Shown: piece by piece, positions 8,338 through 44,444 of the stretch
Layout of the letters: every line of letters begins with the position of its first letter
Position numbering within the stretch: position 1 is the stretch's first letter
NCBI GenBank assembly: GCA_963848965.1
Contig: CAWKFG010000001.1
Span: 416,001-480,000 of the forward strand
Origin: an uncultured bacterium
GTDB lineage: Bacteria; Babelota; Babeliae; Babelales; Babelaceae
Reading direction: 5' to 3'
DNA length: 64,000 nt
The notes under the pieces: model-generated
What the model saw: only the letters and a program-made list of their open reading frames with translations
The model's database searches: none
Told to the model about the DNA's origin: nothing
Program-made: the position numbers and the translations under genes

Positions 8338-8829
8338 ATGAATAGAGTATACGTAGTTAGCATATTTACTCTGATAGCTCTGTTTAGTATTCAGTCTACA
8401 CAAACAAAGCTTACCAAAGAGGCCGTTAGTTATATAGAATATCTTCAACGTGATATACAGCATCTGTTAAATGAGCGCTCTCGCATAGAAAAAAGACTTG
8501 AAGATGCTATGCAAAAGTATTATCAAACTTTAAATATAGTATTTCAAACAACGGAATCGAAAGAACAGATAACTAGTCAGAATCTTGTTACTAAATGGAT
8601 AACTGTAGGAGTACCTTATGATGCAGGAGATAGCTCGGAAAAGCTTGAAAGCAAAATAAGAAATATAACTTTAGATCACCTTAAGTGGGGAAAAAGCACT
8701 GTTGTTCCTCGGGAATGGGGCGCATTTGATCTGCAGATTATGGTAACTCTTCCTTCTAACGCATTGCCTTTACTTAGAGGCATATTAGAGACAATGCTTA
8801 CAGGATATTATATAACATATATTAATTGA
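8338..8829 (+). CDS. Secreted hypothetical protein with coiled-coil segment
   Basis: AAGGAG RBS, hydrophobic N-terminus, 163 aa ORF. Confidence 0.75.
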   Translation: MNRVYVVSIFTLIALFSIQSTQTKLTKEAVSYIEYLQRDIQHLLNERSRIEKRLEDAMQKYYQTLNIVFQTTESKEQITSQNLVTKWITVGVPYDAGDSSEKLESKIRNITLDHLKWGKSTVVPREWGAFDLQIMVTLPSNALPLLRGILETMLTGYYITYIN

Positions 8830-14772: not shown

Positions 14773-14996
14773 AGACTATTCCTTATCTTTACTGTTTTTA
14801 TTCTTAATAGTATATATTTATGGTTGGTTGTAGTTCAATAGTTTTTGTGTTGTAACGAGGACTTGTTTTGAGGGAAGTTTAGTCTTTGCGGTAATAATAA
14901 CTTAACGACAAAGAATAGCCTTTTTGATAAAAAATCATAAAAATACTATACTATACAACATATTTATTAATGATCTTTAAGTTTGAAAGTAATCCT

Positions 14997-16423: not shown

Positions 16424-16458
16424 TATAGAGGAGCTCTGCTATCTAGAGCTCCTCTATA
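16424..16458 (+). terminator. Rho-independent terminator
   Basis: TATAGAGGAGCTCT-7 nt-AGAGCTCCTCTATA followed by a T-run. Confidence 0.7.
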
Positions 16459-16531
16459 TTTTGACATTATTATAGAGAGCGTTATGATAAAAATTGACAA
16501 GATACTTTCGCCATACGTTAAAAGGAGCTGT

Positions 16532-16687
16532 ATGATAAGCAAAAAAAGCTGTAGTGCTAAAATTACGCATAAAAAAGTATGTCAAGAACTAGGTAAAGCA
16601 GCTGTTCTTACCTTAGGACAATGGGATCGATCATTTTCAGAACTTGCTCGTCCAAATGCTTGGCCAGAATGGGCTAAACGTAAATAA
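16532..16687 (+). CDS. Putative lasso peptide precursor (copy 1)
   Basis: AAAGGAG RBS; MISKKSCSAKITHKKVCQELGKAAVLTL|GQWDRSFSELARPNAWPEWAKRK; promoter-like TTGACA-16 bp-TATGAT at 16461..16488; paralog at 32461..32619. Confidence 0.7.
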   Translation: MISKKSCSAKITHKKVCQELGKAAVLTLGQWDRSFSELARPNAWPEWAKRK

Positions 16688-16799
16688 ATAACAATTCTTT
16701 TTTATTTATAGGTACTGCTATCACTATAAAATGTAAAATGAGACCGTACTTGCATACTAGATGTCTATTGGCTGCTCGTTATGATTTTAATATTTTTGT

Positions 16800-16828
16800 T
16801 TGACGTTATAGTTTCTTTGTGCTACTAT
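16800..16828 (+). promoter_or_regulatory. Sigma70-like promoter upstream of the ABC exporter
   Basis: TTGACG-17 bp-TACTAT with an extended -10 TG. Confidence 0.45.
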
Positions 16829-16989
16829 TTTCAATTAATAAACAAAATGTAAGCCTAAACTTCAGAGCTTACTCCCTATATGTCACTACCCTTACGTTGA
16901 GGTTGTATCATGAAATTCCAAGCTTTTTTAATACAAAGATAAGAGATTAATAAAAAGCTTTTCTATTCTTAATTTATTTAAGGAATTTC

Positions 16990-17928
16990 ATGGATATTCT
17001 TAAAGTAAAGGGCTTATCTAAAGTCTATACTTCTGGCTTTTGGCCATTCAGGGTACAACAACAGCACACTGTCGTTAATACTATTTCTTTCACTATTAAA
17101 AAAGGTGAGATTCTTGGCCTTCTTGGTCCAAATGGGGCTGGCAAAACTACAGTTATTCAAATGCTTCTGGGTACCTTATTGCCTAGTAAAGGAGCAATTA
17201 CCTATTTTGGTGTTGATTTTAAACAGCATAGAATAGCCGTTCTTAAGAGAATTGGTTATGCAAGTGGGTACGATAAATTAGCTTCTCAGTTAACTATAGC
17301 TGAGAATCTTGATATTGTTGGGCGAATTTATGGTATTGCACAACCCTTAAGGCAAGAGCGTATTAAAGAACTCTTAACCTTTTTTGGTATATGGCATATG
17401 AAGGATTATAAAACAGGAGTACTTTCAGCTGGTCAAAGTACAAGAGTTTTGCTTGCAAAGGCTTTTATTGCAGATCCTGAAATTGTTTTACTTGATGAAC
17501 CAACAGCAGCTTTAGATCCTGATATTGCTCATGAAGTACGTCAGTTTATTTTACGACAATGTGAAGAAAAGGCTATTTCTGTTTTGATTACCTCACATAA
17601 TATGGATGAGGTTACAGAGCTATGTGACAGGGTGCTTGTTCTTAAAAAAGGAATAATTATTGCAGATAATACGCCTGAAGAGCTTGCTCAGTCAACTTCA
17701 AAGGTCAAACTTCACCTTACTATTTTAAATAAGCTTGATCTTCTCCTTGCGTACCTGCAAGAGGGTGGATTGAGGTATACTATTCAAGGAATGAATGTAA
17801 CAATTGAGTTAGATGAATTGGCAGTTTCGCAGTTTCTTTCAGTAGTGAGTGAAATGAAAGTTAGCTATTCTCATATTTTTATTGATAAGCCAACGCTTGA
17901 AGATTATTTCTTAAGTATTTCTAAATAA
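16990..17928 (+). CDS. ABC transporter ATP-binding protein (DrrA-like exporter)
   Basis: GPNGAGKT Walker A, LSAGQ signature, LLDEPT Walker B, TSH, C-terminal PTLEDYFL. Confidence 0.93.
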   Translation: MDILKVKGLSKVYTSGFWPFRVQQQHTVVNTISFTIKKGEILGLLGPNGAGKTTVIQMLLGTLLPSKGAITYFGVDFKQHRIAVLKRIGYASGYDKLASQLTIAENLDIVGRIYGIAQPLRQERIKELLTFFGIWHMKDYKTGVLSAGQSTRVLLAKAFIADPEIVLLDEPTAALDPDIAHEVRQFILRQCEEKAISVLITSHNMDEVTELCDRVLVLKKGIIIADNTPEELAQSTSKVKLHLTILNKLDLLLAYLQEGGLRYTIQGMNVTIELDELAVSQFLSVVSEMKVSYSHIFIDKPTLEDYFLSISK

Positions 17929-17940
17929 AAAAGGAAACAT

Positions 17941-18735
17941 ATGATTTCATTTACTTCTGTTTGGGCAGTAGTGCTCCGTCATGTTCGTATGTGGAAGCGA
18001 GATCCTAATTATATACTGGGCGGATTTTACTGGCCTTTTCTGGATATATTAATTTGGGGCTTCGTAGGTGCCTGGATTCAAAGGTCACAGATAGGCCACT
18101 TTAGCAATTATGAAAGTGTGGCATTGCTCGCAATTCTTTTATGGCAGGTAATAGGACGAGGATGTAATATTATTTCTATCTCATTGTGTGAAGAACTATG
18201 GTCTCGTAACATAGTGAATGTATTTTCATTGCCATTAAGAATATCTGAGTGGATGCTAGGAATAATACTATTTAATGCGTTAATGATGTTTATTCTCTTT
18301 TTATTCTGCACAGGAGTTATATATTTCTTCTATAATGTGTCACTATGGTATATTGTTTCAACATTCTTTATGTTTATGCCACCACTTTTTCTTTCAAGTA
18401 TCTGGATAGGCTTTACGTGCCTACAGATTATAATTACCTTGGGACGAAGAGGTGCAGAGTTTGGTTTTATCATTGGGTGGTTCTTTATGCCTTTTAGTGG
18501 AGCTTTTTATCCACTAGAAGTATTACCCTCTTGGGCACAGACATTCAGTAAACTTTTACCTATGAGTTACGTCTTTCAAGGAATGCGAGCATATTTAATG
18601 CATCAGCAAGATCCAACTCCTTATTTAATTAAGGGATATGCTTTAAGTTTGGTTTTTGCAACTTATTCAGCGTTATTATTTATCTACTGCTTTAATAAAA
18701 GTAGGCAAAAAGGTCTTGCTCGGTTATCTGATTAA
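17941..18735 (+). CDS. ABC-2 type transporter permease
   Basis: About 6 TM helices; FSGAFYPLEVLPSWAQ..S.LLP.SY motif; follows the ATPase gene. Confidence 0.92.
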   Translation: MISFTSVWAVVLRHVRMWKRDPNYILGGFYWPFLDILIWGFVGAWIQRSQIGHFSNYESVALLAILLWQVIGRGCNIISISLCEELWSRNIVNVFSLPLRISEWMLGIILFNALMMFILFLFCTGVIYFFYNVSLWYIVSTFFMFMPPLFLSSIWIGFTCLQIIITLGRRGAEFGFIIGWFFMPFSGAFYPLEVLPSWAQTFSKLLPMSYVFQGMRAYLMHQQDPTPYLIKGYALSLVFATYSALLFIYCFNKSRQKGLARLSD

Positions 18736-18808
18736 AAATGCTGGCAGACAACTCAAGCTTCTAAAGTACTATGTAAGCTCGAGCTGTTTCTGTCAGTTTT
18801 ATAAAACA

Positions 18809-19864
18809 CTATTCTTTAAGAAGCTCACAGGCGTCCTTTAATGGATCAGGATTATTTTCTTTAAGTTTGTGACCAAGAGCAGTGAGATAATTTTTTGTTC
18901 CAATGAGGTATATCCACGTGTATTCTAGTACTTTGCCGTATAGAATAATATAAGGAGAATAATCTTGTAATGCTGTTAGCCCAGGAATAAAAAGGCCGCG
19001 AAAATTTTGTTTAAGATGTACTTGATTCTTTAGAAGCCTTTTTTCGTCGTTCTCTGTAGGATCATAATACACTGGTTGTACGCCAAGCATAAGAGCGATT
19101 TCATTTAATTGTTGCGGCCAAGAAACCTGTTTTTTTTCCCATACTCGCTCTATCCATGCTTGTACGTCGTTTTTCTCATGAATACCTGTTTGCGGTACAA
19201 TAAATGTGCTTACAAATTGAGGAGAAAGCTGAATTTCTTTTTCGTAACATTTGTATATAAATGGTAAAGGTAGCAATGGGTCAGTAGTTCCTAGCCAAGC
19301 ATAGGAGGATGAGGAATCACTCGCATTTTTTCGTATAATATAAAAGAGTTCATTGGAATAACGCTTATAAATTTCCTTATAGGGAGTATAGTTCTCAAAA
19401 TCTATACATGTTTGTTCTTGGTGGTATACATTAAAAGTTGTAGGCTTTATCCCTAGTAAGGTATAAAGAAATGGTACATCATTAAACTCGAAAAAGTTAG
19501 AGCATTCTGCGTTATATCGTACACGGATGTTACCACTTTTTATCGTTATTTCCTTTTTCAGTTGCTCAATGAAGGGCTTTACCAGTTGTAGCTTATTCTT
19601 AAACTTCTCAAATCGCTTATTCCATTGAAAGATATGTATCTTCAGGTCTTGAGGTAAGCTGCTTACGTAGAAGTCTATATCTTTTTCTAGCGCAGTAAGA
19701 AAGTTTTTCTCAAAATCAGCAGTGAGTTGCGCTGCTTGGTTTTGCCATAATAGGCATGCTGCTTTATGAAGATAGTCATTACTTGTAAGTAGTTCTACCT
19801 CCATAGAATAAAGATTAATCCCTAAAACCAGAGATGTTATAAAAGCTATTGTTTTTTTAAACAT
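18809..19864 (-). CDS. Secreted hypothetical protein (F-box-like segment)
   Basis: Signal peptide ...LYS|MEVE; SSLPQDLKIHIFQW. Confidence 0.75.
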   Translation of the reverse strand: MFKKTIAFITSLVLGINLYSMEVELLTSNDYLHKAACLLWQNQAAQLTADFEKNFLTALEKDIDFYVSSLPQDLKIHIFQWNKRFEKFKNKLQLVKPFIEQLKKEITIKSGNIRVRYNAECSNFFEFNDVPFLYTLLGIKPTTFNVYHQEQTCIDFENYTPYKEIYKRYSNELFYIIRKNASDSSSSYAWLGTTDPLLPLPFIYKCYEKEIQLSPQFVSTFIVPQTGIHEKNDVQAWIERVWEKKQVSWPQQLNEIALMLGVQPVYYDPTENDEKRLLKNQVHLKQNFRGLFIPGLTALQDYSPYIILYGKVLEYTWIYLIGTKNYLTALGHKLKENNPDPLKDACELLKE

Positions 19865-20088
19865 ATTTATCCTTTTATTGATAGCAGCTTGTTGTTATTG
19901 CTAGTCTGAAATTAATTATAATATATCATATGTAACTCGTAACCGCAACTTGTAAGGCTGAGCTTATAGGGCAATTTTTGGGCTTACTGCTGCAGTCTTG
20001 ACCCGCGGCTAATAAGCATTATTGACTTTTATGGGGTATGCTATAAAATTATTATAAATACAAGTAAGAAATATTAATGGGATAATCT

Positions 20089-20805
20089 ATGAAAAAAGTA
20101 CTTTATTTATTGCTATGTGGATCCTGTATAGGTGCTAGTGCTATGGAACGGCAAATATACGAACAAACTTGGTTAGGGCTATTACCAAATGATTTACGAG
20201 TGGAATTGAGCTATTATAATATTAAGAACCAAGCTGAAGAAGTTAAAATGGCTGTAGAAGCTGCTAAAACTTATGATGAAGCACTTTATAAAGCAAAAGA
20301 ATTGTCACAGCAGGAGTGTTATGCTCTTGCATTCAATAACCTATCTTTTACACAGAACCTTATTACTTTGTTAATGAAGAAATATAATAAACCATTTGAT
20401 CCTGCAGTTGGATATGTAGATCCTGAAAAAGCTATAGCAGAAGCACTTGGGACTTTAGGAGCACAACAATGGCTCGAACTTAAATCGCTTGAATCAGCAT
20501 ATTTCGATGCGATATTTAAAGGGAACTGCGAAGTTGTAGAGTCTATCCTGAGCCAAGGAATAATAAATATCAATGCTAAAGATAAGTTGGGGTATACCGC
20601 TTTAATGTTTGCAGTAGATTACGGCCATAAGGATCTAATACTATTGCTGCTGCAGAAGGGTATTGATGTTAATGCTGAAAGTACTCTTAATTGGACTGCC
20701 CTTAAAAGAGCACAATTATATAATAGTAATGATATAGTTGAACTCCTCAAAATACATGGAGCAATTGATAATCGCGGCATAGAAGCTAGCTTTTCTAAAA
20801 GCTAG
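20089..20805 (+). CDS. Secreted F-box-like/ankyrin repeat protein
   Basis: ...ASA|MER; LGLLPNDLRVELSYY; GYTALMFAVDYGHKDLILLLLQKGIDVNA. Confidence 0.88.
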   Translation: MKKVLYLLLCGSCIGASAMERQIYEQTWLGLLPNDLRVELSYYNIKNQAEEVKMAVEAAKTYDEALYKAKELSQQECYALAFNNLSFTQNLITLLMKKYNKPFDPAVGYVDPEKAIAEALGTLGAQQWLELKSLESAYFDAIFKGNCEVVESILSQGIININAKDKLGYTALMFAVDYGHKDLILLLLQKGIDVNAESTLNWTALKRAQLYNSNDIVELLKIHGAIDNRGIEASFSKS

Positions 20806-21354
20806 TAGATTTTTTCTGTCCATTTATTTTATTGATAAAGTCTACCACTTTTTTAAATGTGTGACCGCATTCTCTCTTATGGCCTAGAATTCCTAAAGCC
20901 AGATAGAGTATTTTCCTGCTTGCAGATGAGATTTAAAGTAAGTATACTAAAAAAGAGAATAAATCATTTTTTGTCTTTGGATCTTAAAGACATTTGCGCA
21001 TAAGGGCTAAGCATGAATTTAAAATACTCATTTCTTCTTCTCTCATTGCTGCTTTCGGCATGGCCTCTTTTCTAAGGTACTGAGTTTCTTCAGCACCAGA
21101 CCCTCATTTTATCGTTTTATGTGCCCAATTACTGTTCTTTGGGTTTAGATATTCTTTTGCTTTTAGAAGTTCTACGTTAAATATATAGTCATTGATTTTA
21201 CGTGGGTTACTGCATTGTGCTCAATACCTTCTTCCTTAGCAAATAAGAAATCATAGTTATCATTAATTAGGGGTAGCTGAAGAAATATTAGATAGTTAGG
21301 TATATTATGCCTGAAATTCATAGAGCAATTCACTTAGATTATTGAGGAAAATAA

Positions 21355-21825
21355 ATGAAAAATCTTAATTTACCTAGTATTCATTATTTAGATAGTAAAC
21401 AGATAAAATACAAAGTTCTCCATCTTACTTCGGTAGCGCGTAGTGCACACGATGTGCAAAGGCTTTATGGCTGTTCTCTTGAGCAAATTTTAAAAACTCT
21501 TGTACTCATAAGCAATGAAGGACCTCTTATTGCTGTAATTCAAGGTAGTGAAGAGTTATCATTTGAAAAGGTTAAAGCCTTCTTTAATCTTACTGCTTTA
21601 AGATTTGCAACAGCAAAAGAAGTTCTGGCTATTACTGGCTATGTTGTAGGTGGTGTTTCTCCTTTTGGGTTACCAGAAAATATAAGAAAGATAGTTGATA
21701 AGAAAGCTTTCGACCAGCAAACTTTAAATATGGGAGGAGGAACTCCTTTTATTGGTCTAGAACTTTCTGCTGCTGACTTTAAAAGCGTATGGGATGGATA
21801 CATAGATAGTATTTTAGCCGCATAA
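21355..21825 (+). CDS. YbaK/EbsC-family aminoacyl-tRNA deacylase
   Basis: QILKTLV; TGYVVGGVSPFG motif. Confidence 0.9.
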   Translation: MKNLNLPSIHYLDSKQIKYKVLHLTSVARSAHDVQRLYGCSLEQILKTLVLISNEGPLIAVIQGSEELSFEKVKAFFNLTALRFATAKEVLAITGYVVGGVSPFGLPENIRKIVDKKAFDQQTLNMGGGTPFIGLELSAADFKSVWDGYIDSILAA

Positions 21826-21967
21826 CAAATAAGGTAGCTACAAAACATACATTGACGTGTAAATCTGCTTGAAGTTTTAACAAAGAGCAGCTCACAATTG
21901 ACAGTTAAGTCACTCTTGCTATTCTAATGCAAAATACTTTTATTCGTAAAGTAGGGGCTTCTTTAGC

Positions 21968-24508
21968 ATGAAAAAGTTGTGTTTTTATATAATAAGAGTA
22001 ATGGTTATTAGCTGCCATTTTCTTTCATTGTTGGCTATGGAGAAAGAGAAAGCAGGCTATAAAAAGGGTATAGAGCATTATAAACACAATGAATTTGAAC
22101 AATCAGTAAAGCAATTAAAACAGGCAGTTAATAGCACTGATGAATTTATAAAAGCACATGCTTTACATGCAATTGGTACTATCTATTTAAAGCAAAAAGA
22201 TTATGAGAAAGCAGAGATATATCTCTTGCGATCTTTGGCATGTAAAGAAAGACCAAATGCGCTTTTTAATAATTTAGGAATAGTATATTGGAAAACGTGG
22301 CGAATAGAAAAAGCTATAGAGTGTTTTAAACAAGCCTTAGCTGTAAAAGATGAGTGTGTTCAGCAGAACATTGCTATTTTATTAAAGGACCACCTTGCAC
22401 ACTCTTTTGCACCAGAAGCTTTACAATCGCTTGCTTTTGACAATAGAGAAGATATACAAGGTAAAGAGGAACAAGTGTCTCAAGAAAAGGCAGGTGAGCC
22501 TGTTACCTATAAAGAGCCTGAAACAAATAATATAGTAGCAATTGAACCTGTTGTGCCTAAAAAGCCAGAGCCTCGCCGTAAACACCGCAAAAAACCAAAG
22601 CGCACAAGTGTAAAACAAGAAGATCCAAAGGAAAAAAAAGAAACAGAGGAATCACCAAAGAAAGAAAATAACAATACATTGTATGAATGGCGCTGTGAGC
22701 ATATTTTTTCTCATAAACTACTGCAAGGGCATAAAGATCCTTGTGGCACTGCACTTGCTCTTTATTGTAATAAAGATGGCACAGAGCTTGCTATTCTTAC
22801 CTATAACTATTTATATCTTTGGGATACTCAAACAGGGATCTGTAAAGCTATTAAAGAGCTGGCAGATAAGGTAACCATTGCTCTTGCAAAAGATCATCCT
22901 CTAGTTTCTTGGAATGAAGATACACGAGAGCTTTATGTAGTGACAGCTACAGGAATTATAAAAGTACATGCTTTAGATGAATCACCCTTTCACCTTGTAC
23001 TTAAAAAAGAGGGAACCCTGTGGCCTCAAGGGCAATCGCATGGAACATTTAATAAAAATACTACTTTGTTTGCAGCTCTTATAGAACATGCAGGACAAAA
23101 GCTGTTAGTATATTGGGATTTAGAAAGTGGTCGTATGAAGATTCTTGATAAAGGTCCCTTTCTAACAACTCTTATTGGTTTACACTTTACCCATGATAAC
23201 AAGTTATGTGGGGTAATGAAAAATGGTCTTATGAAGGTATGGGATCTAGCTGGTAATTGTTCTACGTCTCAACTACAGGTCAATGGTACAAAAATGATTA
23301 GTGCGAGCGTAAGTCCTGATGGGCGTCTTATCTCTATGAGGGCTGCTGACGGTACAAAGCTATTTTCCTCTGCTACTCTTAAAGAGTTGCCTATACTCCA
23401 AGAGTCTAATTCTGCAGGCTATTTTGCTCGTGACGGTAGTTGTATAGTCGTAGCATATGCGAGCGGAAATATTACAGTATTTTCTGGTGAAGGAAAGGTA
23501 CTTTCTACTTTACAAGCAGGTCGAGAGCGCTTTTTACAAGTATGCTTAAATAACAGTAATGATATGTTTTTTGCTCGTACTGAATCAGACAAAATACAAA
23601 TCTGGAAGCGTTTTGAAGTACCTGAAGTTCGGGTAAACCAAGAGCAGTTACCTCTAGTAAAAGAGCAGCCAGTTCCTGCTTTATTTATACGAATATATTG
23701 CCCTAATATACAGTTTGAAGGTGATTTAGCTAGTGTAGAGGGAGATATTGTGCAGGAAAATGTGACTACTGTATTATGTGATAGTTCAAAACATTACATA
23801 TCTATCTATATGGCACATGGTTCTACTATTATAGTACGTCCGGCAAGGCAAGACCAGTTTGAACTACCAGTACAGCATAAGGGCTATATTTGGGTTTTAC
23901 GAACAATTAAACATCGAGGTGTGCTTGCTTCTGCAGGAGAAGATTGTTTAATCCATCTGTGGAATTTAAAGGAAAGAGATTGCTGTGGGCTTTTAAAAGG
24001 ACATAAGGCACCGATATGGTCTTTAGCATATGATGAAGAAACTGAAACTTTATTTTCGGGAGCTCAAGATGGAGTTATTCATAAGTGGAATCCTAAATAC
24101 AGTGAGTTGATAGGATCATTCATTGGGCACACTAAGAGAGTAAATGATGTAAAATCTTTTGCTGTTTTACAAGATGCGCAAATTCCTTCCAAAATACTCC
24201 TTTCGGCTTCAGATGACTGTACTGTGCGATTGTGGAATAGAGAAACTGGTACCTGTATTAAGATATTTACAGGGCATACAAAGCCAGTAAGACAGGTTAC
24301 TTATTGTAATAAACATGATCTTGTTGTTTCAACAAGCGAAGATTATACTCTGAGGTTATGGGATATACGTTCTGGAGAATGCCAAAAAGTAGAGGGGCTT
24401 TTAAATTTTCGGGTAAAAAAAGTTACTGTAAACGAACAAGAAGATTTTATCAGCGTTGTATATAGTGATGGTACAACTAGTACCTATCCAATTGTAAAGA
24501 AAGTATGA
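21968..24508 (+). CDS. Secreted TPR plus WD40 repeat protein
   Basis: ...LLA|MEK; TPR helices (LFNNLGIVYWK..KAIECFKQAL); GH...SAS.D.TVRLWN WD40 repeats; basic linker. Confidence 0.9.
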   Translation: MKKLCFYIIRVMVISCHFLSLLAMEKEKAGYKKGIEHYKHNEFEQSVKQLKQAVNSTDEFIKAHALHAIGTIYLKQKDYEKAEIYLLRSLACKERPNALFNNLGIVYWKTWRIEKAIECFKQALAVKDECVQQNIAILLKDHLAHSFAPEALQSLAFDNREDIQGKEEQVSQEKAGEPVTYKEPETNNIVAIEPVVPKKPEPRRKHRKKPKRTSVKQEDPKEKKETEESPKKENNNTLYEWRCEHIFSHKLLQGHKDPCGTALALYCNKDGTELAILTYNYLYLWDTQTGICKAIKELADKVTIALAKDHPLVSWNEDTRELYVVTATGIIKVHALDESPFHLVLKKEGTLWPQGQSHGTFNKNTTLFAALIEHAGQKLLVYWDLESGRMKILDKGPFLTTLIGLHFTHDNKLCGVMKNGLMKVWDLAGNCSTSQLQVNGTKMISASVSPDGRLISMRAADGTKLFSSATLKELPILQESNSAGYFARDGSCIVVAYASGNITVFSGEGKVLSTLQAGRERFLQVCLNNSNDMFFARTESDKIQIWKRFEVPEVRVNQEQLPLVKEQPVPALFIRIYCPNIQFEGDLASVEGDIVQENVTTVLCDSSKHYISIYMAHGSTIIVRPARQDQFELPVQHKGYIWVLRTIKHRGVLASAGEDCLIHLWNLKERDCCGLLKGHKAPIWSLAYDEETETLFSGAQDGVIHKWNPKYSELIGSFIGHTKRVNDVKSFAVLQDAQIPSKILLSASDDCTVRLWNRETGTCIKIFTGHTKPVRQVTYCNKHDLVVSTSEDYTLRLWDIRSGECQKVEGLLNFRVKKVTVNEQEDFISVVYSDGTTSTYPIVKKV

Positions 24509-24608
24509 TAATTTCAAAAGTCTAGCAACGGAAGATTCTGTGCTAAATAATTGATCAGAGTTTCGTATAATGAGCCTACGTTTGCAGTTGCCAATATATT
24601 AACTCTGC

Positions 24609-25541
24609 TTATTGCTTGGCTCTTTTACTTAAAAGCAAGTTTACTATATCTTTATGACCAAATTGAATAGCATACTTTAAGGCAGTTTTACCATCTTCAG
24701 CTTGTGCATTAATATCAGCCCCTTGTTGTAATAAAAATTCTACGATATCTTTGTAACCGTTTCTTGCAGGATTTAATAAGGCGGTTTTGCCAAAATCATC
24801 TCGAGCGTTAACATCAGCTCCTGCTTCTATAAGAAGTTCTACTACATCTTTATGTCCACTCATAGTAGCAAACATTAAAGCGGTATAACCATTATTATCT
24901 TTTGCATCAATATCTACGTTTTTATTTAACAATAGCTCAACTATTTCTTTGTGTCCGTATTTTGCGGCCCACATGAGTGGTGTCCAGCCATAGTCATCTC
25001 TTGCATTAGCATTAACTCCTTGGTCTAAAAGAGCTCTTACTGTTGAAAAGTTTTTTTCTACAGCGTCTAAAAGTTGTAATTCATGCGGGTGCCTTTGCAA
25101 CCATTCTTTTGTCCCTGTAACTGTAAGAGAGTGCGCTATATCTTCTTGTTTGCGAGGAGCTCTTTCTTTTTTATGTAAAACATGAATAAGAAAGTAGGTA
25201 AAGGAAAGACTATTGAAGATAGGGCTCAATTGATTATCTTTTAATACTTTTTTTATAATTGCTAGTGCTTCATTGTATATTGTAGGAGATTTGAGAATGG
25301 TTTCGATTATCTTGTAACATAGATATAAATCCAATTCTCGTTTAAGTTCTAATGGTAAAAGTGCAAAATGGCCTTCTTTATAAATATTTTCCAAAGCCAG
25401 ACTTGCTATAGGCAGTGCTGTGGTAATAATTTCCTTACTAGTAGGACCTGGATTGGGACTTTTTTGATCATGCGATATAGAGTGCATAGCTAAGGCACTA
25501 ATGAAGGAGGTACCGATAACAGCATAGAGTAGCTTTTGCAT
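24609..25541 (-). CDS. Secreted F-box-like/ankyrin repeat protein
   Basis: FALLPLELKRELDLY; near-consensus ankyrin repeats GWTPLMWAAKYGHKEIVELLL. Confidence 0.92.
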   Translation of the reverse strand: MQKLLYAVIGTSFISALAMHSISHDQKSPNPGPTSKEIITTALPIASLALENIYKEGHFALLPLELKRELDLYLCYKIIETILKSPTIYNEALAIIKKVLKDNQLSPIFNSLSFTYFLIHVLHKKERAPRKQEDIAHSLTVTGTKEWLQRHPHELQLLDAVEKNFSTVRALLDQGVNANARDDYGWTPLMWAAKYGHKEIVELLLNKNVDIDAKDNNGYTALMFATMSGHKDVVELLIEAGADVNARDDFGKTALLNPARNGYKDIVEFLLQQGADINAQAEDGKTALKYAIQFGHKDIVNLLLSKRAKQ

Positions 25542-25683
25542 TTATTTTTCCTTTTATAACTTTATTATATATGTTTCATTGTAAATAATATATGTTTAAA
25601 TGTAAATAACGAATTGGAGCAACAATTTTGTGTGCGTCCTAATGCATAGCCAAAATGGGCTAAACGTCAAAAAAATGAACTTT

Positions 25684-26763
25684 TTATTTTTTAGCAAACT
25701 GCCTATACTCCTCAAAGCTTGGCAATTGAGGAAAATGCTTTAATAGATCCGGAATTTTTAGTACAGGTAACGTCTGGTATTGTGACAAGATTTTGTCATA
25801 ATCTATAGAGTAAAGTTTTTGGATCTGCTCTGCCTCTTCAAGTGCTTTTTTTGTAAGAGCTGCTATACAGTTATTATAGGCATTCTTTTTAGCTGGTGTA
25901 TTTGCAAGGCTTTGTAGTGCCATAATACCTCTATAGATAGTAAAAATAGTGCGAGCCAAAATTCTTGCCTTCCTTCGTGCTTGAGCATCTGTAGCGTCCA
26001 TAAGTTTATAGGCGATAATGAGCTCGTAAAGAGGAGGAATGCCAAGACTATAAAAATCATAATTTGGTTTAGCCATGAACAAGCGAGATATAGGTTCAGT
26101 ATCCCAAATGACAGCAAAACCATTAGAGTCAAAAACTATATTTTCTGACCGGACATCTGCAAAGTATGTTTGTCTAATAACCTCACATAAATCATGAAAC
26201 TGTTCGTCAGTCATTGATTCTAAGCGTTTTGTAAGGTCCGGTTTTATTTTTTCAGCTAGAACTGCAAAATTTCTGTCAAGCATCTTTCTATTAGCGCCAG
26301 GAAGTGGATAGGCATATTTTTTAGGAGCGCGAACTTTAGCTTTGAGTTTATTTGCTACATCGTTTATACGATCAGCTTCAACAATACGACTTAAATTATT
26401 TTGCGAAGTTAAAAGTTCTTTGACCGCTTGAAGTTTGATTACATAATCAGGAACGGTATCGGTTTCAAATACTATATAACGAACATATGAATAAAGTGGG
26501 CCTAATCGTTTGGGAACCTTAAAGAAATTGAATTCGTCTGGTGAATCTTCAAATTTTTTTAATAAGACTTCCATAGTATCCATATCATGAGCTGTAATAT
26601 CTGCTCTTTTAAAGAGATTGTCAAGCGATTCTCGTACAGAAGCAGGTGGCAAATGCTCTTGTACCCACTGCTGACTAAAAGGTGAAGCTGCATAACAACT
26701 AAGTGATACTACTATACTACTTAGTATGCCAATGAATTGAGAATAATATATAAATGAAGACAT
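25684..26763 (-). CDS. Secreted atypical protein-kinase-like protein
   Basis: YVIK (beta3 Lys), ADVRSENIVF (catalytic-loop-like), IWDTE (Mg-binding-like); signal peptide; ORF open from 26769. Confidence 0.6.
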   Translation of the reverse strand: MSSFIYYSQFIGILSSIVVSLSCYAASPFSQQWVQEHLPPASVRESLDNLFKRADITAHDMDTMEVLLKKFEDSPDEFNFFKVPKRLGPLYSYVRYIVFETDTVPDYVIKLQAVKELLTSQNNLSRIVEADRINDVANKLKAKVRAPKKYAYPLPGANRKMLDRNFAVLAEKIKPDLTKRLESMTDEQFHDLCEVIRQTYFADVRSENIVFDSNGFAVIWDTEPISRLFMAKPNYDFYSLGIPPLYELIIAYKLMDATDAQARRKARILARTIFTIYRGIMALQSLANTPAKKNAYNNCIAALTKKALEEAEQIQKLYSIDYDKILSQYQTLPVLKIPDLLKHFPQLPSFEEYRQFAKK

Positions 26764-26962
26764 GGCCACCTCGGTATTTATTTTTATAATTATAAAAGGC
26801 TAAATTAATCATAGTATAATTATATTTTATTCAATTTGAATATTTTAAGTCAATGGTGAGAGATTCAAGGTGTCAAGTGTCTTAGATTCGTTGTCAAAAA
26901 TATTCTGCATCTAAAAGGGTAATTCTTGTAACAGTTGATTGATATGAGATCTTGCAAATACT

Positions 26963-28138
26963 TTATAAGTTTTTTATGACCTGGTCTGTATTTTTCCATG
27001 ATACTATTTTACCGTTTGTTCGTATTTGGTCTTGACTGCCACCATAAATGACTATCGAAGTTTCGTTGCTATGTATTTCTTTTTTGAACCAAGCTAATGT
27101 TTTGAAAAAGTTATTTTGTATGGTTTCAAAAGACTTGATTTCTACGGGTATTGTACGACCACCAGCTTCTATAATAAGATCGATTTCGTTTTGATTGCTA
27201 TCTCTAAAAAAAGATAGACGGCATTGCATATTGAAGGCATAGCAGTTTTTTAGAAAGTCAGCGATAACCATATTTTCAAACAGAGCTCCATAAATAGTTC
27301 GATTCTTTGTTATGACTTCTCGGTTAACTCCCATAAGATGTGTGGCAAGACCGACGTCATAAAAGTAGAGCTTAGGAGATTTTGTAATCCTTTTACCGAG
27401 GTTATCTTGGTACGAAGGTAGTAGAAAAAGAATAAAACTAGACTCTAGGAGTGACAACCAGCTACGTGCTGTATTAATTGAGATACTACAATAAGTAGCT
27501 AACTGAGTAATATTTAAGGTCATTCCAATGCGTAATGCACATAGTTGAATAAATTTTTTAAAGCTTAGAACATTTTCAATATTTCTTACCGTACGTATAT
27601 CCCGTTCAACATATGTTGAGATGTAGTTTTCATAAAAATCTTTCTCGTTAACGTAAGGTTGGTATACACGAGGATAGAACCCTTTAAATAGTTGATCTTG
27701 AGGAGATTTACACAGTAACTGTGAATTCTGTAGTTCTTGTATTGAAAGCGGTAACAGAGTATAGAAATAAGCCCTGCCTGTTAAGGATTCGCTTATTTTT
27801 TCATGTAATAAAAAATTTTGAGATCCTGATAGAATATAATATCCTGGTTGTGGTTCTTTATCTGCTTCTACTTTTATTTGAGGAAATAGTTTTGGCGCAT
27901 ATTGTGCTTCGTCAATTATGATTCCATGCTCATTTTTATAATTGTTTAAAAATCCTTTAGGGTCTTGATTGGCAAACTCAAAAAGTTCAGTATCTTGCAT
28001 ATCTAAATAGGTATAATGGGGAAATAGCTCTTTGGCTAATGTGCTTTTTCCAGATTGTCGTGGGCCTATAATGGCTAAAATAGGTACTTGCTTTATACCA
28101 GATTTAATTGTCGGAGTTATAGATCTTTTAATAAACAT
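26963..28138 (-). CDS. AAA_14 / DUF4143 ATP-binding protein
   Basis: GPRQSGKS, IIDEAQ, LSGSQ, ESLTGR, KSPKLYFYDVGL, EIDLI..PVEIK. Confidence 0.92.
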   Translation of the reverse strand: MFIKRSITPTIKSGIKQVPILAIIGPRQSGKSTLAKELFPHYTYLDMQDTELFEFANQDPKGFLNNYKNEHGIIIDEAQYAPKLFPQIKVEADKEPQPGYYILSGSQNFLLHEKISESLTGRAYFYTLLPLSIQELQNSQLLCKSPQDQLFKGFYPRVYQPYVNEKDFYENYISTYVERDIRTVRNIENVLSFKKFIQLCALRIGMTLNITQLATYCSISINTARSWLSLLESSFILFLLPSYQDNLGKRITKSPKLYFYDVGLATHLMGVNREVITKNRTIYGALFENMVIADFLKNCYAFNMQCRLSFFRDSNQNEIDLIIEAGGRTIPVEIKSFETIQNNFFKTLAWFKKEIHSNETSIVIYGGSQDQIRTNGKIVSWKNTDQVIKNL

Positions 28139-28297
28139 TTTGCACCTTTCACTATATGAATATCATAACATATAGTGATCGATTTTCATAGATTTTTCTG
28201 TGTTTTAAGCACATTGGACAAAGTATTCCATGAAGGAGGTTATCAGGGCAATAAGGATCAGTGTATGAAGAAAGGCTTGCTGCTCATCTTTGCCTGT

Positions 28298-28993
28298 TTA
28301 ACTTTTTTGATGCATGGCACATTCAAGTATCTTTTCTGTAGTTATATTGTTTCTTAAGCGAGCAAAGCTTAGAGCTGTGTCACCATGAGGATTTTGAATG
28401 CTTGGATTTGCACCATACTCTAATAGTAGTTTAACATGAGCATCATAACCATTGAATGCTGCCAGCATTAACGGGGTCAAGCCTTCGCGGTTTTGAGCAT
28501 TAACCTTGGCTCCTGCTTTTAATAATAGTTCTGCTATAGATGTACTTCCAAGAGCCCTAAATAAAGCAGTTTCATTAAGTCTATCTTGAGCATTACTATG
28601 AGCACCAGCCTTAAGAAGGCGCTCTACTATGTCTTTATGGTTACCTGCTGCAGCGGACATTAATGGAGTGTTACCAGATTCACCTTGAGTATTAATGTTG
28701 GCACATGCATTAAGAAGAAGCTCTACTATTTCTTTGGATCCTCGTCTTGCAGCGTATATTAAAGCAGTGTCGCCATACTGGTTTTTTGCATTAACATCAG
28801 CACCTTTATTAATAAGCTCTTTTACGGTATCTACTTTACCTGTTTGTGCTGCCATCATTAAAGGAGTTTGGTCGCCGCTCCATAGTATGAAGTGTTGGTT
28901 ATCATCAAGACTTATAACTCTAATTTCTTCCATTCCAAGAGCATTGATAGTGAATCCAATTATTCCTGTGAGTACTATAATTTTCATAAACAC
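28298..28993 (-). CDS. Secreted ankyrin repeat protein
   Basis: ...ALG|MEE; about 5 consensus ankyrin repeats. Confidence 0.92.
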   Translation of the reverse strand: MFMKIIVLTGIIGFTINALGMEEIRVISLDDNQHFILWSGDQTPLMMAAQTGKVDTVKELINKGADVNAKNQYGDTALIYAARRGSKEIVELLLNACANINTQGESGNTPLMSAAAGNHKDIVERLLKAGAHSNAQDRLNETALFRALGSTSIAELLLKAGAKVNAQNREGLTPLMLAAFNGYDAHVKLLLEYGANPSIQNPHGDTALSFARLRNNITTEKILECAMHQKS

Positions 28994-29113
28994 CTCATTG
29001 TAATTATTTATATTTTTATAATAGTATAATAAGTTTGTGCAATTTTCAACAACTTTAGGTTCTTTTCATAGAATTTCTCTATTGCTTGTAATATGGTATA
29101 ACTTTAGTGTGAG

Positions 29114-29308
29114 ATGGGAAGCTTATTATTTGAACGACTTAACGAACTTAAAATACAAACGCAGACGTATGATCACATCTCTTTATATACGGTAGAAGAA
29201 GCTCTTAGAGTAGCGAACTCTATTTCTGCAACACAAGGCTTGCAGCTTTCTGCCTTCACTCTCTGGACTTCTGGTGTTAGTCAGTATAATGATTACTACA
29301 AATTCTAA
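29114..29308 (+). pseudogene. N-terminal fragment of a PrdX/YbaK prolyl-tRNA editing protein
   Basis: LFERLNELKIQTQTYDHISLYTVEEA resembles the PrdX L..L.I.....H..L.TVEE start; the rest is missing. Confidence 0.55.
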
Positions 29309-32300
29309 TCTTTCTTAGAAAAATCTAATTTGTTAAGATGATCTATTTGTTGTGTCGATAATCCCCATTCCTGCCATTGTTCTGAGTTTTTTAAAATAAA
29401 CGACCAGTGGTCTCCTGCTAAAGTAAAAACTTCGTTAGGATGACCAAAGTAGTATAGTGTCTTTTTTACTAACAGTCGGAATACAAGGAAATCATAAGGT
29501 GTTTGTATATGACGTAATTTTAAAACACATGTTTTATTTTCTGCATCCCTATATAATAATATTTTTGGGTTTTCTTCAACTATGCGTCCAATAGTATCTA
29601 TAGCCATTTTACTATTAGGAAACTCATTAAAATGCTCTAAAACAGTAAACAGTATTTGTTTATCTTGCCATAGAGCATGTCGATGTTGAAAAACAATTTC
29701 AGATCTATCGAAAAGCCATTGCCACCATGCTTTATATTCATCTTTTTGCATTTGCGATAAATTAAACGATGATATAAAGTATTCTAAAATAACGTATAAA
29801 GTTGTGCATAGCCTATCATTGAACCAAATTTTTGCTCTTTCGTCGAACCAAAGGTCTAAGTTTCGCTGCAAAATTGGATAACTATGACTAGCCTTTTGAG
29901 CTAAGTCAAGCAAGTAGCAATGCATTATAGTATTAAAATAAAACTTTTGCCATAGAGTAAGTTTGTTATAAAACTCTTCATTAAAGTATAAAAGATTTGG
30001 TTCAGTAAAACTTCTTTTGAAGTCTGGCCATGTTTGCAACCACTGCCTTTGATCTGAATTAAGAATAGAAACTATGAATTTTTGGTAGAAAGCAGGCCAG
30101 CGCTTTACCAAATTTTCTGAGATGCCATTTTTAGCATCCTCATGCAATTTTTCATTAAATCTTTCATAAGACCCCTCTTGGCTACAGGTAGTCTGTTCTT
30201 TTTGAAAGTTGGCTGCATAGCAATTAGCCTCATTAATAATATTTGCGGGTAAACCCTGCTCCTCTGCAATTTCAATACCAGAAAAATCACTCGATATACC
30301 TTTTTGCATCTTGAATTTATTTATGTCATTCCGTTTTGGCATCATATAGTAGCCAAAATTAGATACTTCTTTTTGTACTTGTTTAAGCTCATTGATAAAA
30401 TGTGTAGAAGTAATAGAGACATTATTTTTATAATTACTCAATACCTTTAATGTAGCCATTGCTAACGCAGCTCCATCTATTTTATTAGTACCGTTAAACA
30501 TTTCATCAAAAGCAATGAGAGAAAAATGAGAATCAGATGATTTTCTTGCATATTCTTCTAATCCTTTAACTCGTTTTGCATGAGCTTGATGTAAAGATAG
30601 TCCTTGAGCCTGACTATCAGTTACATTGAAGCATGTTGCTATAGAGCTAAAGGGATGTAATGTTAATCTATTAGCAGTCGCTATACCAAATGTTTGAGCT
30701 AAAATAATGTTAAAAAGAAGCGCTCTCATGAGTGTTGATTTACCTCCTGCATTTGCTCCTGTAATTACAAGCCCATTCTTATTTTCAGAATGATTGCCAA
30801 TTTCTACAGAGTTAGGTATCGGCTTTGCAATAAGAGGGTTATAAAAATCATTCAATACGATGAGGGGAGATTCGAAAATTGGCTGAGGAGGATACTCAGC
30901 ATAACAGATAGGTAATTTTTCTTTTACTGAGTTATTTATAAAGAGAGCTATCGACATATATGCTTCAAGTTCTGCTAAAGCAACCATTGCTTGTAATAAC
31001 GAATCTCTATGCTCAATGAGTTGATTATAAATGATTATAAGAGACGGCAAGTCAAATGCATCGCTTGTACTTTTAAACTCTCTGATTTTATTAATTAAAT
31101 TGCCGGTATTTAAAAAGGATAAGTTGTTAAGTTTTGGTAATAAGGGAAGGAGAGAATTAGCATACTGCTCAATTTTTTCCTTTATAGTGTACATATGCTC
31201 TAAATAGCTACATAACTTCTTTGTTTTCTTGCATAATGCGCTACTTAAATCGATATAGGGAGCAAATGCTCTTTCATCAGAGATGTTCTTTAGAACGGCA
31301 AATTTCTGCAGCAGTTGGATTTTACGGTTATCCTGAAAAACCATTGGTATATCACTTGTACTAGGTAAAAGTTTAAGATAACTTATTAGTTGATCCGGTA
31401 TACTTGTTATCTTAGCTGCTGCACTCGATGCAATAAGCAATGCTTTTGGTATATCATTTCCTAGCTGGCACAGCTTCTCCATATTCATATCTATCTTAAG
31501 ACCAAAAAGACTATTCAATTTTTTGAAAACGTTGTGGATAAGAAAACTTACTGTAGGAGGAACACACTCTGTTTCCCAAAAATTTTTCAGTGGTATCACT
31601 ATTCTTCTCACCCCTTGGTTAACCTTTTGCCCGATAGTCAATCGTATAGTCTGCTCCGCAGTACATATGTTAGCTACAACTGTATTATTATTATACCAGT
31701 CAGAGGCTTTCTTTAGAGCCTCTGATTCAAATTGTGTATCAACCAATTTTAGCCCCCTGATAGTTGATGCAAAAGAATCTTCATCAAAGAGTGTAAAAAA
31801 AATAGCTTCATGATTTGCTAAATTATCAAAATCTTTCTTTAATTCATATAACAAAGGACTTGTTTGAAGCTTATGAATACTAGTTTGTCTTGTCCTTAAA
31901 ACATTAGTATCTGCGGATGGGGTGGCGAGAATGCTATAAAGATAGGCTTTTCCTAATTCAGTACTTGTATAATCAATAGTTGCAGCATAGTTTAAATGGG
32001 GTTTGTCTTTAGGTCCATAAAAGAGTTCTAAATCTATGCAAGACCAAAGATCAAGAACGCCGCTGGTAAAATTTTTTTTAGCTAATAATTCAAAAGCTTG
32101 TCTTCTTTTTTTACTGGGCAATGGATTAAGTTGTGCACAAAGTGATCGAGAATAAGAACCGTCAATTTCTTCTTCATTGAGTTTGCCTTCTGCTTTCTTC
32201 TTTTCTTTTTCAGCGCGTAAAGCTTGTTCTTGTTTTAAATGATTGTCATCTTTTTCTTTTAACGATAGGCAGTTTTGCTTAGCTATTTCTTCATAAAATT

Positions 32301-32358
32301 CTTGGCCATACAACAACGTTTGAAAACTGAGCATAAGAAAGAAAAAGTACTTTTTCAT
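29305..32358 (-). CDS. Secreted MutS-related ATPase (MutS domain V) with long C-terminal extension
   Basis: ITGANAGGKST, ILAQTFGIA, FDEMFNGTN, STHF, GIS...GIEIA...GLP; N-terminal signal peptide; no mismatch-binding domain I seen. Confidence 0.85.
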   Translation of the reverse strand: MKKYFFFLMLSFQTLLYGQEFYEEIAKQNCLSLKEKDDNHLKQEQALRAEKEKKKAEGKLNEEEIDGSYSRSLCAQLNPLPSKKRRQAFELLAKKNFTSGVLDLWSCIDLELFYGPKDKPHLNYAATIDYTSTELGKAYLYSILATPSADTNVLRTRQTSIHKLQTSPLLYELKKDFDNLANHEAIFFTLFDEDSFASTIRGLKLVDTQFESEALKKASDWYNNNTVVANICTAEQTIRLTIGQKVNQGVRRIVIPLKNFWETECVPPTVSFLIHNVFKKLNSLFGLKIDMNMEKLCQLGNDIPKALLIASSAAAKITSIPDQLISYLKLLPSTSDIPMVFQDNRKIQLLQKFAVLKNISDERAFAPYIDLSSALCKKTKKLCSYLEHMYTIKEKIEQYANSLLPLLPKLNNLSFLNTGNLINKIREFKSTSDAFDLPSLIIIYNQLIEHRDSLLQAMVALAELEAYMSIALFINNSVKEKLPICYAEYPPQPIFESPLIVLNDFYNPLIAKPIPNSVEIGNHSENKNGLVITGANAGGKSTLMRALLFNIILAQTFGIATANRLTLHPFSSIATCFNVTDSQAQGLSLHQAHAKRVKGLEEYARKSSDSHFSLIAFDEMFNGTNKIDGAALAMATLKVLSNYKNNVSITSTHFINELKQVQKEVSNFGYYMMPKRNDINKFKMQKGISSDFSGIEIAEEQGLPANIINEANCYAANFQKEQTTCSQEGSYERFNEKLHEDAKNGISENLVKRWPAFYQKFIVSILNSDQRQWLQTWPDFKRSFTEPNLLYFNEEFYNKLTLWQKFYFNTIMHCYLLDLAQKASHSYPILQRNLDLWFDERAKIWFNDRLCTTLYVILEYFISSFNLSQMQKDEYKAWWQWLFDRSEIVFQHRHALWQDKQILFTVLEHFNEFPNSKMAIDTIGRIVEENPKILLYRDAENKTCVLKLRHIQTPYDFLVFRLLVKKTLYYFGHPNEVFTLAGDHWSFILKNSEQWQEWGLSTQQIDHLNKLDFSKKD

Positions 32359-32460
32359 TAAAAACTCCGTAAGCGCGGAAACTGGGCCTTTTAAGGGGCG
32401 CTAGTTGACAGTATCCTTAGTAAGAGTCGACATTAAATACTATAAAAATCTTTTAGTTAT

Positions 32461-32619
32461 CTAGACCTTTTTGGCCCATTTAGGAAAGGCATTTGGTCGG
32501 GCAAGCTCTGTAAATGTTCGATCGGGTGGGCCTAAAGTAAGCAAAACAGCACGACCTAGCCCTTTAATGGCCATTTTTTTGTTTATGCTTTTTTTATTCT
32601 GGTTTTCTGTATTTAGCAT
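32461..32619 (-). CDS. Putative lasso peptide precursor (copy 2; not in ORF track)
   Basis: AAGAGG RBS; MLNTENQNKKSINKKMAIKGLGRAVLLTL|GPPDRTFTELARPNAFPKWAKKV*; promoter-like TTGACA-16 bp-TACAAT at 32733..32706. Confidence 0.7.
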   Translation of the reverse strand: MLNTENQNKKSINKKMAIKGLGRAVLLTLGPPDRTFTELARPNAFPKWAKKV

Positions 32620-32770
32620 AGTAACCTCTTTTGGTTAAAATTCAGAATCATCTTTAGTACTATTTTGAGCTATTTTGATTAGTAATTTATAACTTTTATT
32701 TTATGATTGTATAGCCATAAAAAATTCTGTCAACGACATAAAGTCTTTATCCTGCTATCCATTTACTTCC

Positions 32771-36296: not shown

Positions 36297-36430
36297 AAAT
36301 AATAGTCTTCTAAAGCAAGAAATTTTGGAGCAAAGATGCCTTTCTTGTACCAAATGTTAAGTGGACTTGACATTTGGTGTCACTAAATGTTAAATTGAGT
36401 TTGCATTTAGTAGCGCATGGTAGGAAAAAT

Positions 36431-42679: not shown

Positions 42680-42807
42680 GTCTTCGCTCTTCGAGCTATC
42701 AGCCTGTATTTTTGCAAAAAAGCAATTGAAGATCTTGATTTTTGATCTCTGTTTGTTATTATAAATTACAGATAGGTTTAAATCATATAATAATAAGGTG
42801 GATATTT

Positions 42808-43428: not shown

Positions 43429-43459
43429 TAAGGCTCTTTTACCTACCGTTAAACTTTTG

Positions 43460-43487
43460 AGGCTAGTGCGCTTATGTTCACTAGCCT
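43460..43487 (+). terminator. Terminator hairpin, repeated after each phosphatase copy
   Basis: AGGCTAGTG...CACTAGCCT followed by a T-rich tract. Confidence 0.7.
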
Positions 43488-43535
43488 TTACTTTTACTAC
43501 TATTTTCAGGTAGAACGGCTTTGGGTTTAAAGCAG

Positions 43536-43562
43536 AAGCTAAGCCCTGTTAGGGCTTAGCTT
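43536..43562. repeat. 12-bp-arm inverted repeat
   Basis: AAGCTAAGCCCT-GTT-AGGGCTTAGCTT. Confidence 0.7.
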
Positions 43563-44413: not shown

Positions 44414-44444
44414 GCTCTTTACGAAGTATAAGCTGCTTATTTTG

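Follow-up and report, generated by a model that had tools for sequence, protein, structure and literature searches.

Lasso peptides of the microcin J25 and capistruin type are encoded by proteobacterial A-B-C-D clusters that combine a fused B protein with an ABC exporter, and genome mining for this class (precursor-pattern scans, RODEO, antiSMASH) is not known to seek precursors anywhere but next to the B and C genes; orphan ones would thus be overlooked and the product repertoire of a genome undercounted. A looser organisation is known from the prochlorosins of Prochlorococcus, class II lanthipeptides with thioether rings made by a LanM enzyme, for which many precursors share a conserved leader, carry hypervariable cores and in several cases lie far from the enzyme gene; their processing in trans by ProcM was experimentally demonstrated. 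Dependentiae are intracellular parasites of protists that are known almost only from metagenomes and have very few biosynthetic capacities. Here we describe two small open reading frames (ORFs) in a 64-kb stretch of a Dependentiae genome (the window; positions 416001-480000 of contig C1 of the 1.73-Mb, five-contig genome G000) which very probably belong to a family of lasso-peptide precursors. The evidence supports reading them as orphan members of a precursor family that is Dependentiae-wide and for which the enzyme genes of this genome lie on another contig.

Lasso genes have been reported from other bacteria that live in protists. A cluster of Amoebophilus asiaticus (Aasi_0899-0902), which has homologues in Paracaedibacter symbiosus and Odyssella thessalonicensis, is reported to be upregulated at a late stage of infection and is suggested to play a part in host interaction (PMC8831229), and an antiSMASH-predicted lasso cluster is reported for Candidatus Megaira (PMC10132079). 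Compared by description, the Amoebophilus cluster and its homologues resemble the genes of G000 as lasso genes of obligate intracellular bacteria of protists, but they belong to Bacteroidota or Alphaproteobacteria and the cluster is single and compact. No paper on lasso peptides in Dependentiae was found in a search that excluded subscription literature and supplements, and nothing relevant was found on remote, orphan, in-trans or multi-core lasso precursors in a literature of which the coverage was incomplete.

Set against the general description of the microcin J25/capistruin type (no sequences were compared), G000 has the same fused B protein, in which a putative leader-binding domain is joined to a Cys-His-Asp transglutaminase-like protease, a putative cyclase (C) that is likewise asparagine-synthetase-like, and precursors with Thr at position -2, Gly1, an acidic acceptor at position 8 or 9 and cores of 15-25 aa; related Dependentiae clusters also have a McjD-like ABC exporter. 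It differs in that the window precursors are on another contig than B and C, that the genome has as many as 15-17 precursors, two B genes and three C genes, that the exporter homologue is unlinked and that the precursor family has no Pfam or NCBIfam model. In organisation it is like the prochlorosins, with many dispersed precursors, a conserved leader, variable cores, few enzymes and a small genome, whereas the class of ribosomally synthesised peptide with post-translational modifications (RiPP) and the enzyme are different and processing in trans is here what we infer. The precursor arrays of other Dependentiae (loci L038-L049, genomes G006 and G009) have the leader-end motif, Thr-2, Gly1 and Glu8 or Glu9 in common with G000; they differ in that the precursors stand in tandem beside B, C and D, in that some ORFs hold two to four cassettes, and in that G006 alone also has precursors away from B. 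We regard the finding as a scattered form of an already known RiPP class.

The two window ORFs are called as proteins without names in NCBI- and ENA-sourced collections, and their translations are MISKKSCSAKITHKKVCQELGKAAVLTLGQWDRSFSELARPNAWPEWAKRK (precursor 1) and MLNTENQNKKSINKKMAIKGLGRAVLLTLGPPDRTFTELARPNAFPKWAKKV (precursor 2); the coordinates of these and of all other features are collected in Table 1. An earlier note, made from the window alone, had described them as a pair of small ORFs, each with its own ribosome-binding site and a TTGACA promoter-like site of 16-bp spacing, that align without gaps in their C-terminal parts and both have Thr-2, Gly1, Glu9 and a cationic tail of 14 residues, and each of these observations was reproduced. 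BLASTP aligned the peptides with 25/51 identities (49%; E 1e-17), placing the single gap in the Lys-rich N-terminal part and leaving the C-terminal 32 residues gapless. The tails have net charges of +3 (peptide 1) and +4 (peptide 2) and carry Arg12, Trp16 and Trp19 in the first and Arg12, Phe16 and Trp19 in the second; some of these residues may act as plugs. Both promoter-like sites match 11 of 12 consensus positions. The -35 element of the first overlaps an inverted repeat with its T-rich run (16427..16462), which is likely a hairpin terminator of the upstream MYND-finger gene, and because this terminator-like hairpin precedes it, peptide 1 probably has a transcript of its own. From stop to stop the frames span no more than 90 aa (peptide 1) and 57 aa (peptide 2), so the ORFs are not pieces of longer genes, and neither peptide has a significant match in Pfam or NCBIfam, the best being F420_ligase at E 0.23 and the albusnodin lasso family at E 0.19.

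The window pair is part of a larger family. All six frames of the 1.73-Mb genome were scanned with a regular expression for the leader/core pattern, which matched 15 small ORFs against a mean of 0.5 in 20 residue shuffles, and therefore more than expected by chance. One of the matches (C5:82710-82823) looks spurious and is not among the matches of the family hidden Markov model (HMM); one true member was added by eye, and the HMM was built from the resulting 15 ORFs, all of which it recovers at E <= 2e-16, with the next ORF at 0.012. Every one of the 15 has Thr-2 and Gly1, the acceptor being Glu8 in eight and Glu9 in seven, and their leaders end in hydrophobic-Gly-x-(Ala/Val)-x-x-x-Thr-x before Gly1, followed by cores of 15-25 aa. 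Thirteen are on contig C4 and the window pair are the only clear members on C1. With two weak candidates counted, the family numbers 15-17 and the window ORFs are two outliers of it rather than a pair on their own, which the earlier note could not see. A search for homologous proteins gave ten, nine of them on contigs that agree in length with C1 and C4; the tenth, P0011, from a 35.5-kb ENA contig, is near-identical to one of the precursors of cluster 1 (described below). Across the several genomes from which members were aligned, Thr-2, Gly1 and Glu8 or Glu9 are kept in 27/27.

The enzymes that such precursors would need are encoded in the same genome, on contig C4, where all of its Asn_synthase and Transglut_core3 matches lie, giving two B genes and three C genes in total. 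Cluster 1 (C4:92,680-95,241) encodes a B protein of 249 aa (B1) and a C protein of 600 aa, with two precursors running divergently just upstream. Cluster 2 comprises an ABC ATPase, an ABC-2 permease, a 251-aa B protein (B2), a 595-aa C protein, four precursors and a second, convergent C gene (585 aa). Both B proteins pass the NCBIfam model lasso_biosyn_B2 (NF033537; 66 and 67.7 bits, cut-off 33) and Transglut_core3 (PF13471; 62.2 and 61.1 bits, cut-off 26), and Cys188, His220 and Asp232, which from work on McjB we take to be the catalytic triad, are invariant in 13/13 aligned B proteins. When the N-terminal part of B (residues 5-68) was searched as a profile, the sole match was the solved leader-binding protein TfuB1 (6jx3_B, E 0.0075). 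The three C proteins score 72.7-76.1 bits with Asn_synthase (PF00733; cut-off 21), and their genes adjoin B genes and precursors. The closest homologue of a McjD-like ABC exporter in the genome (C4:62196-63863, minus strand) is 50% identical to the exporter inside the lasso cluster of G009; 19 kb separate it from the nearest precursor and 29 kb from B1. Since this exporter is unlinked and transposase genes occur among the C4 precursors, an ancestral A-B-C-D cluster looks to have been scattered by rearrangement in this genome. Beside the precursors at C4:82981-85290 there are two Sulfotransfer_1 proteins and a DXD glycosyltransferase (L011 1768-4323; C4:79.8-82.3 kb), which could be tailoring enzymes or unrelated.

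None of this machinery is near the window ORFs. Whole-genome searches gave no Asn_synthase, Transglut_core3 or PqqD match on C1, and Pfam searches of 52 of the 58 window ORFs of at least 100 aa (the other six are mostly short and overlap longer ones) gave no lasso enzyme, in agreement with the earlier note, which had seen no cyclase, B peptidase or PqqD protein in the 64 kb. Both ORFs lie about 190 kb or more inside C1, counted from its nearer end, which puts every B or C gene no closer than that. The window precursors show all the sequence features of the class but not the adjacency to B and C of canonical clusters, which lowers the claim to a canonical cluster and not their status as precursors. 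Of the genome-wide search that the note had proposed, the cyclase and peptidase parts succeeded on C4, whereas Pfam PqqD had no match in the whole genome.

Relatives show the same association of precursors with enzymes. A search of genome contigs with an alignment as query found 12 loci encoding related cyclases, G006 and G009 among them, where a single C protein as query had found none; they come from Candidatus Babeliales, Dependentiae, candidate division TM6, Babeliaceae and one Rhabdochlamydiaceae metagenome-assembled genome, origins from which we read G000 as a Dependentiae and which fit the probable protist endosymbiont suggested by the note. Precursor-like ORFs are present beside the cyclase in 12/12, and a McjD-like exporter (ABC_membrane plus ABC_tran) was found in all six loci scanned for it; the B proteins are 39-52% and the C proteins 31-47% identical to those of G000. 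When 261 genomes of the phylum were searched, the precursor profile of 27 sequences matched in 16 (E <= 1e-3) and PF13471 exceeded its cut-off in 16, and these are the identical 16 genomes, spread over nine families. In 14 of the 15 others every precursor match is within about 5 kb of B. The exception is G006, where three precursors adjoin a lone cyclase and more adjoin a secretin-like gene, none of them on the contig that carries B; near the secretin-like gene (C5:13595-13868; L017 1203-1569) one of the precursor-like ORFs is seemingly disrupted after the start of the core. Among 1.84 billion proteins of any length, hmmsearch found the motif only in small proteins, bar two spurious repeat proteins, P0013 (6400 aa, with a weak motif once per 280-aa repeat) and the HEAT-repeat protein P0020. 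Metagenome contigs searched with an alignment of the two peptides and P0025, a foreign homologue, gave 219 pattern stretches, none of which was confirmed. None of the three outcomes that the note had named as refuting its lasso reading came about: B and C homologues are present in the genome, precursor and B occur in the same genomes of the phylum, homologues keep the conserved positions, and the ORFs are no fragments of a longer protein.

Other Dependentiae also encode longer ORFs of this type, of 73-159 aa with two to four tandem leader-core cassettes, each having the Thr-x-Gly junction and Glu8 or Glu9. At L047 and L049, beside B and C, the number of cassettes per ORF is 2, 3, 3, 3 and 4. 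Two or three stretches were matched in 35 of 53 profile matches, and the 14 that were read are all of 73-115 aa with tandem leader-core cassettes; multi-cassette proteins are among P0014-P0024, P0026-P0028 and P0030. If processed, these would be multi-core lasso precursors for which a C-terminal trimming step would be required.

Table 1. Features of the window (positions without a contig name), of the rest of genome G000 (C1, C4) and of related loci (L047, L049)
Feature	Position	Strand	Remarks
Lasso precursor 1	16532..16687	+	51 aa; family HMM E 6.7e-20
Precursor 1, leader	16532-16615	+	residues 1-28; Thr27 at -2
Precursor 1, core	16616-16684	+	23 aa; Gly1 (Gly29), Glu9, 14-aa tail
Promoter-like site, precursor 1	16461..16488	+	TTGACA-16-TATGAT; 11/12 consensus matches; consensus match only
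Ribosome-binding site, precursor 1	16523..16527	+	AGGAG; 4 nt 5' of ATG at 16532
Inverted repeat and T-rich run	16427..16462	+	perfect 11-bp arms 16427-16437 and 16445-16455; read directly, unlisted by consensus scan
Lasso precursor 2	32461..32619	-	52 aa; family HMM E 9.5e-20
Precursor 2, leader	32619-32533	-	residues 1-29; Thr28 at -2
Precursor 2, core	32532-32464	-	23 aa; Gly1 (Gly30), Glu9, 14-aa tail
Promoter-like site, precursor 2	32706..32733	-	TTGACA-16-TACAAT, -35 at 32733; 11/12 consensus matches; consensus match only
Ribosome-binding site, precursor 2	32625..32629	-	AGAGG; 5' of ATG at 32619
ABC ATPase	16990..17928	+	Pfam, NCBIfam; 300 bp 3' of precursor 1
ABC-2 permease	17941..18735	+	Pfam, NCBIfam; downstream of precursor 1
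MutS domain III+V protein	29305..32358	-	1017 aa; directly downstream of precursor 2
EF1_GNE-like domain	8338-8829		eukaryote-like
MYND domain	14970-16397		eukaryote-like
WD40 domains	21968-24508, 52804-54324		eukaryote-like
RING domain	39399-40961		eukaryote-like
Eight precursors	C4:82,981-99,781		around lasso cluster 1
Four tandem precursors	C4:795,498-796,346		inside lasso cluster 2
One solitary precursor	C4:421,309
Weak candidate	C1:407407-407637	+	Thr-2, Gly1, Glu8; HMM E 2.3; adjoins MutS-like paralogue
Weak candidate	C4:417235-417375	-	Thr-2, Gly1, Glu8; HMM E 0.012; adjoins MutS-like paralogue
MutS-like paralogues	C4:~86-89.5 kb, C4:95.3-98.5 kb, C1:405210-407120, C4:417544-418374
Multi-cassette ORFs	L049 2846-3241, 3235-3609, 3631-4107; L047 6677-6976, 7000-7365

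Maturation of the window peptides in trans by distant enzymes is the likely route, and the expression, cleavage, cyclisation, threading and export of the peptides, together with the enzyme set acting on them, are what we infer as follows. Each gene would be transcribed from its own promoter, after which the RiPP recognition element (RRE)-like N-terminal domain of the fused B protein would bind the leader and the Cys-His-Asp protease domain would cut between Leu-1 and Gly1. The asparagine-synthetase-like cyclase would then join the amine of Gly1 to the side chain of Glu9, giving a nine-residue ring threaded by a cationic tail of 14 residues rich in Trp, Phe and Arg, and the product would leave the cell through the unlinked McjD-like ABC pump or another pump.

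The enzymes in question are most likely B and C of cluster 1 (C4:92.7-95.2 kb). Outside the pair, the best match of peptide 1 in its own genome is the precursor adjacent to B1 (E 0.064), and the two have Ser-Glu-Leu-x-Arg-Pro in common at the acceptor. Compared from position -16 to -1, the window leaders have mean BLOSUM62 scores of 25.0 and 30.2 against the eight leaders of the cluster-1 region, and 15.2 and 17.5 against the four of cluster 2. The cores of cluster 2 all have Glu8 (4/4), while those of the cluster-1 region are mixed between Glu8 and Glu9. A complex of B1 with precursor 1 was modelled with ipSAE values of 0.70, 0.69 and 0.71, the best of three controls reaching 0.01; the mark applied is reached by 116/157 solved complexes and 2/215 mismatched pairs, counts which are rough when own alignments are used. 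The runs had at least 52% of contacts in common, with a partner pLDDT of at least 48. In the modelled pose, which makes mechanistic sense, the conserved leader end (peptide residues 15-24) runs along residues 19-35 in the N-terminal domain of B, and Leu26-Thr27-Leu28-Gly29 contact B residues 187-190 and 217-221, including the invariant Cys188 and His220.

Immediately around the peptides, an ABC ATPase and an ABC-2 permease follow precursor 1. Orthologues of the permease are present in 38/41 genomes of the bacterial family, including ones without lasso genes, and reach 83% identity in G051; synteny with that genome covers the ABC operon only (16977-18731; 75% nucleotide identity), and the five closest carriers of the permease have no significant precursor match (best E 0.116). 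The transporter was considered as a dedicated exporter of peptide 1 and rejected as the likely reading, since relatives that lack lasso genes have kept the pair, and for the same reason its link to peptide 1 is probably incidental. Precursor 2 is followed by a MutS-like protein of which paralogues (27% identity, E 7e-49) flank cluster 1 on either side. There are about ten such paralogues in the genome, five of them within 3 kb of a precursor or candidate, and in four related loci of other genomes (L038, L039, L043 and L046) such genes are likewise found no more than 5 kb from B or C. We know of no link between MutS-type ATPases and peptide maturation.

Further observations concern the surroundings of the peptides. 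Two AAA_14/DUF4143 ATPase paralogues (26963-28138, minus strand; 36374-37612, plus strand) of 26% identity and inverted orientation bracket an 8-kb segment with two ankyrin genes, the MutS-like gene, peptide 2 and a 413-aa protein without family. The window as a whole is rich in ankyrin, WD40, RING, MYND and dual-specificity-phosphatase proteins, a gene content that fits a Dependentiae, with the phosphatases including three tandem paralogues (PTP-SAK / DSPc; 42742-45351, plus strand). A MerR-family regulator with a TipAS antibiotic-recognition domain is present at 45667-46425 (plus strand) and is followed by hydrolase genes.

Several findings weigh against the window ORFs being working lasso precursors that are served in trans. 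The lack of a PqqD match has been given above, and the best NCBIfam matches of the C proteins are the lasso and macrolactam cyclase models NF033535 and NF033561 with 82-119 bits, which is below their cut-offs of 525 and 300. The profile behind the co-occurrence in 16/261 genomes was derived partly from ORFs that had been found next to B and C genes, and genomes that are related do not count as independent cases. As RRE-leader complexes have already been solved, the score of the complex model may reflect likeness to these, and because in the calibration of the tool close cousins of a true partner also pass, the model cannot separate B1 from B2 or prove binding by this copy. No close orthologue of either peptide was found in the genomes of the bacterial family with the precursor profiles, and in G051 a precursor is absent both from the syntenic position and from the rest of the genome. 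P0025, the closest foreign homologue, is 64% identical to peptide 2 with Thr-2, Gly1 and Glu9 kept, and its tail ends four residues beyond Glu9, which is not long enough for threading; decay can therefore occur within this subfamily. Among the sequencing runs listed for this DNA there was no RNA run, the sole match being a soil-metagenome DNA run (0.38 of sampled words). The ratio dN/dS between peptides 1 and 2 is 0.42 (dN 0.31, dS 0.75), which over 32 gapless codons and at that dS is weak evidence of constraint.

Some of these points would equally be expected if the two ORFs were decaying leftovers, that is, duplicated precursors which were moved out of a cluster by rearrangement and are unused and not yet disrupted. 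The lasso system of G000 is scattered, remnants of an IS5-type transposase and of TnpB lie among the C4 precursors and the exporter is 19 kb off, and the missing counterpart in G051, the genome with the most similar ABC operon, the truncated tail of P0025 and the failure to find an RNA run all agree with decay. We nevertheless think it unlikely: both ORFs are intact and have 11/12 promoter-like and Shine-Dalgarno sites, the two peptides are 51% diverged and yet both retain, free of gaps, the leader end, Thr-2, Gly1 and Glu9 together with the core motif that surrounds Glu9, the dN/dS is 0.42, and a reduced genome of 1.7 Mb is expected to shed unused genes.

It is more improbable still that the peptides are made and do not become lassos, their role being instead that of cationic peptides released from the cell, or of decoys or regulators whose leader keeps B occupied. 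Conservation peaks at the cleavage and ring positions (Thr-2, Gly1 and Glu9; 27/27), neither peptide has a signal peptide or other export feature visible in its 51-52 residues, and the family is confined to genomes with the B protease; such a role would suit the tail charges of +3 and +4 and a transcription that, judged by the promoter-like sites, is independent of the enzymes, and the complex model addresses binding only and not turnover. Least credible of all is that the peptides act with their neighbours, the ABC-2 transporter and the MutS-like ATPase, and not with the distant B and C proteins. The ATPase and permease genes begin only 300 bp from peptide 1 and cluster 2 has such a pair too, and MutS-like paralogues recur beside precursors and clusters both here and in the four related loci, but most of the 38/41 genomes with the ABC orthologues are without lasso genes, the operon of G051 has no peptide, the permeases of the window and of cluster 2 are barely alike, and a function with neighbours cannot explain why Thr-2, Gly1 and Glu9 are conserved.

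The reading that we prefer, in which the window ORFs are lasso precursors matured by enzymes encoded on C4, would make G000 a case where lasso enzymes serve a dispersed library of precursors, as ProcM does for lanthipeptides, and maturation in trans would bear on the substrate tolerance of these enzymes and on their use in engineering. More tentatively, and with somewhat less than even confidence, the whole may amount to a prochlorosin-like lasso library, in which one or two B/C sets mature 15-17 scattered precursors with hypervariable cores, the products being directed against the host or competing microbes and MutS-type ATPases being a recurrent accessory. Maturation in trans would also give the Dependentiae a defined family of secreted small molecules, which could be tested in their interaction with hosts and competitors.

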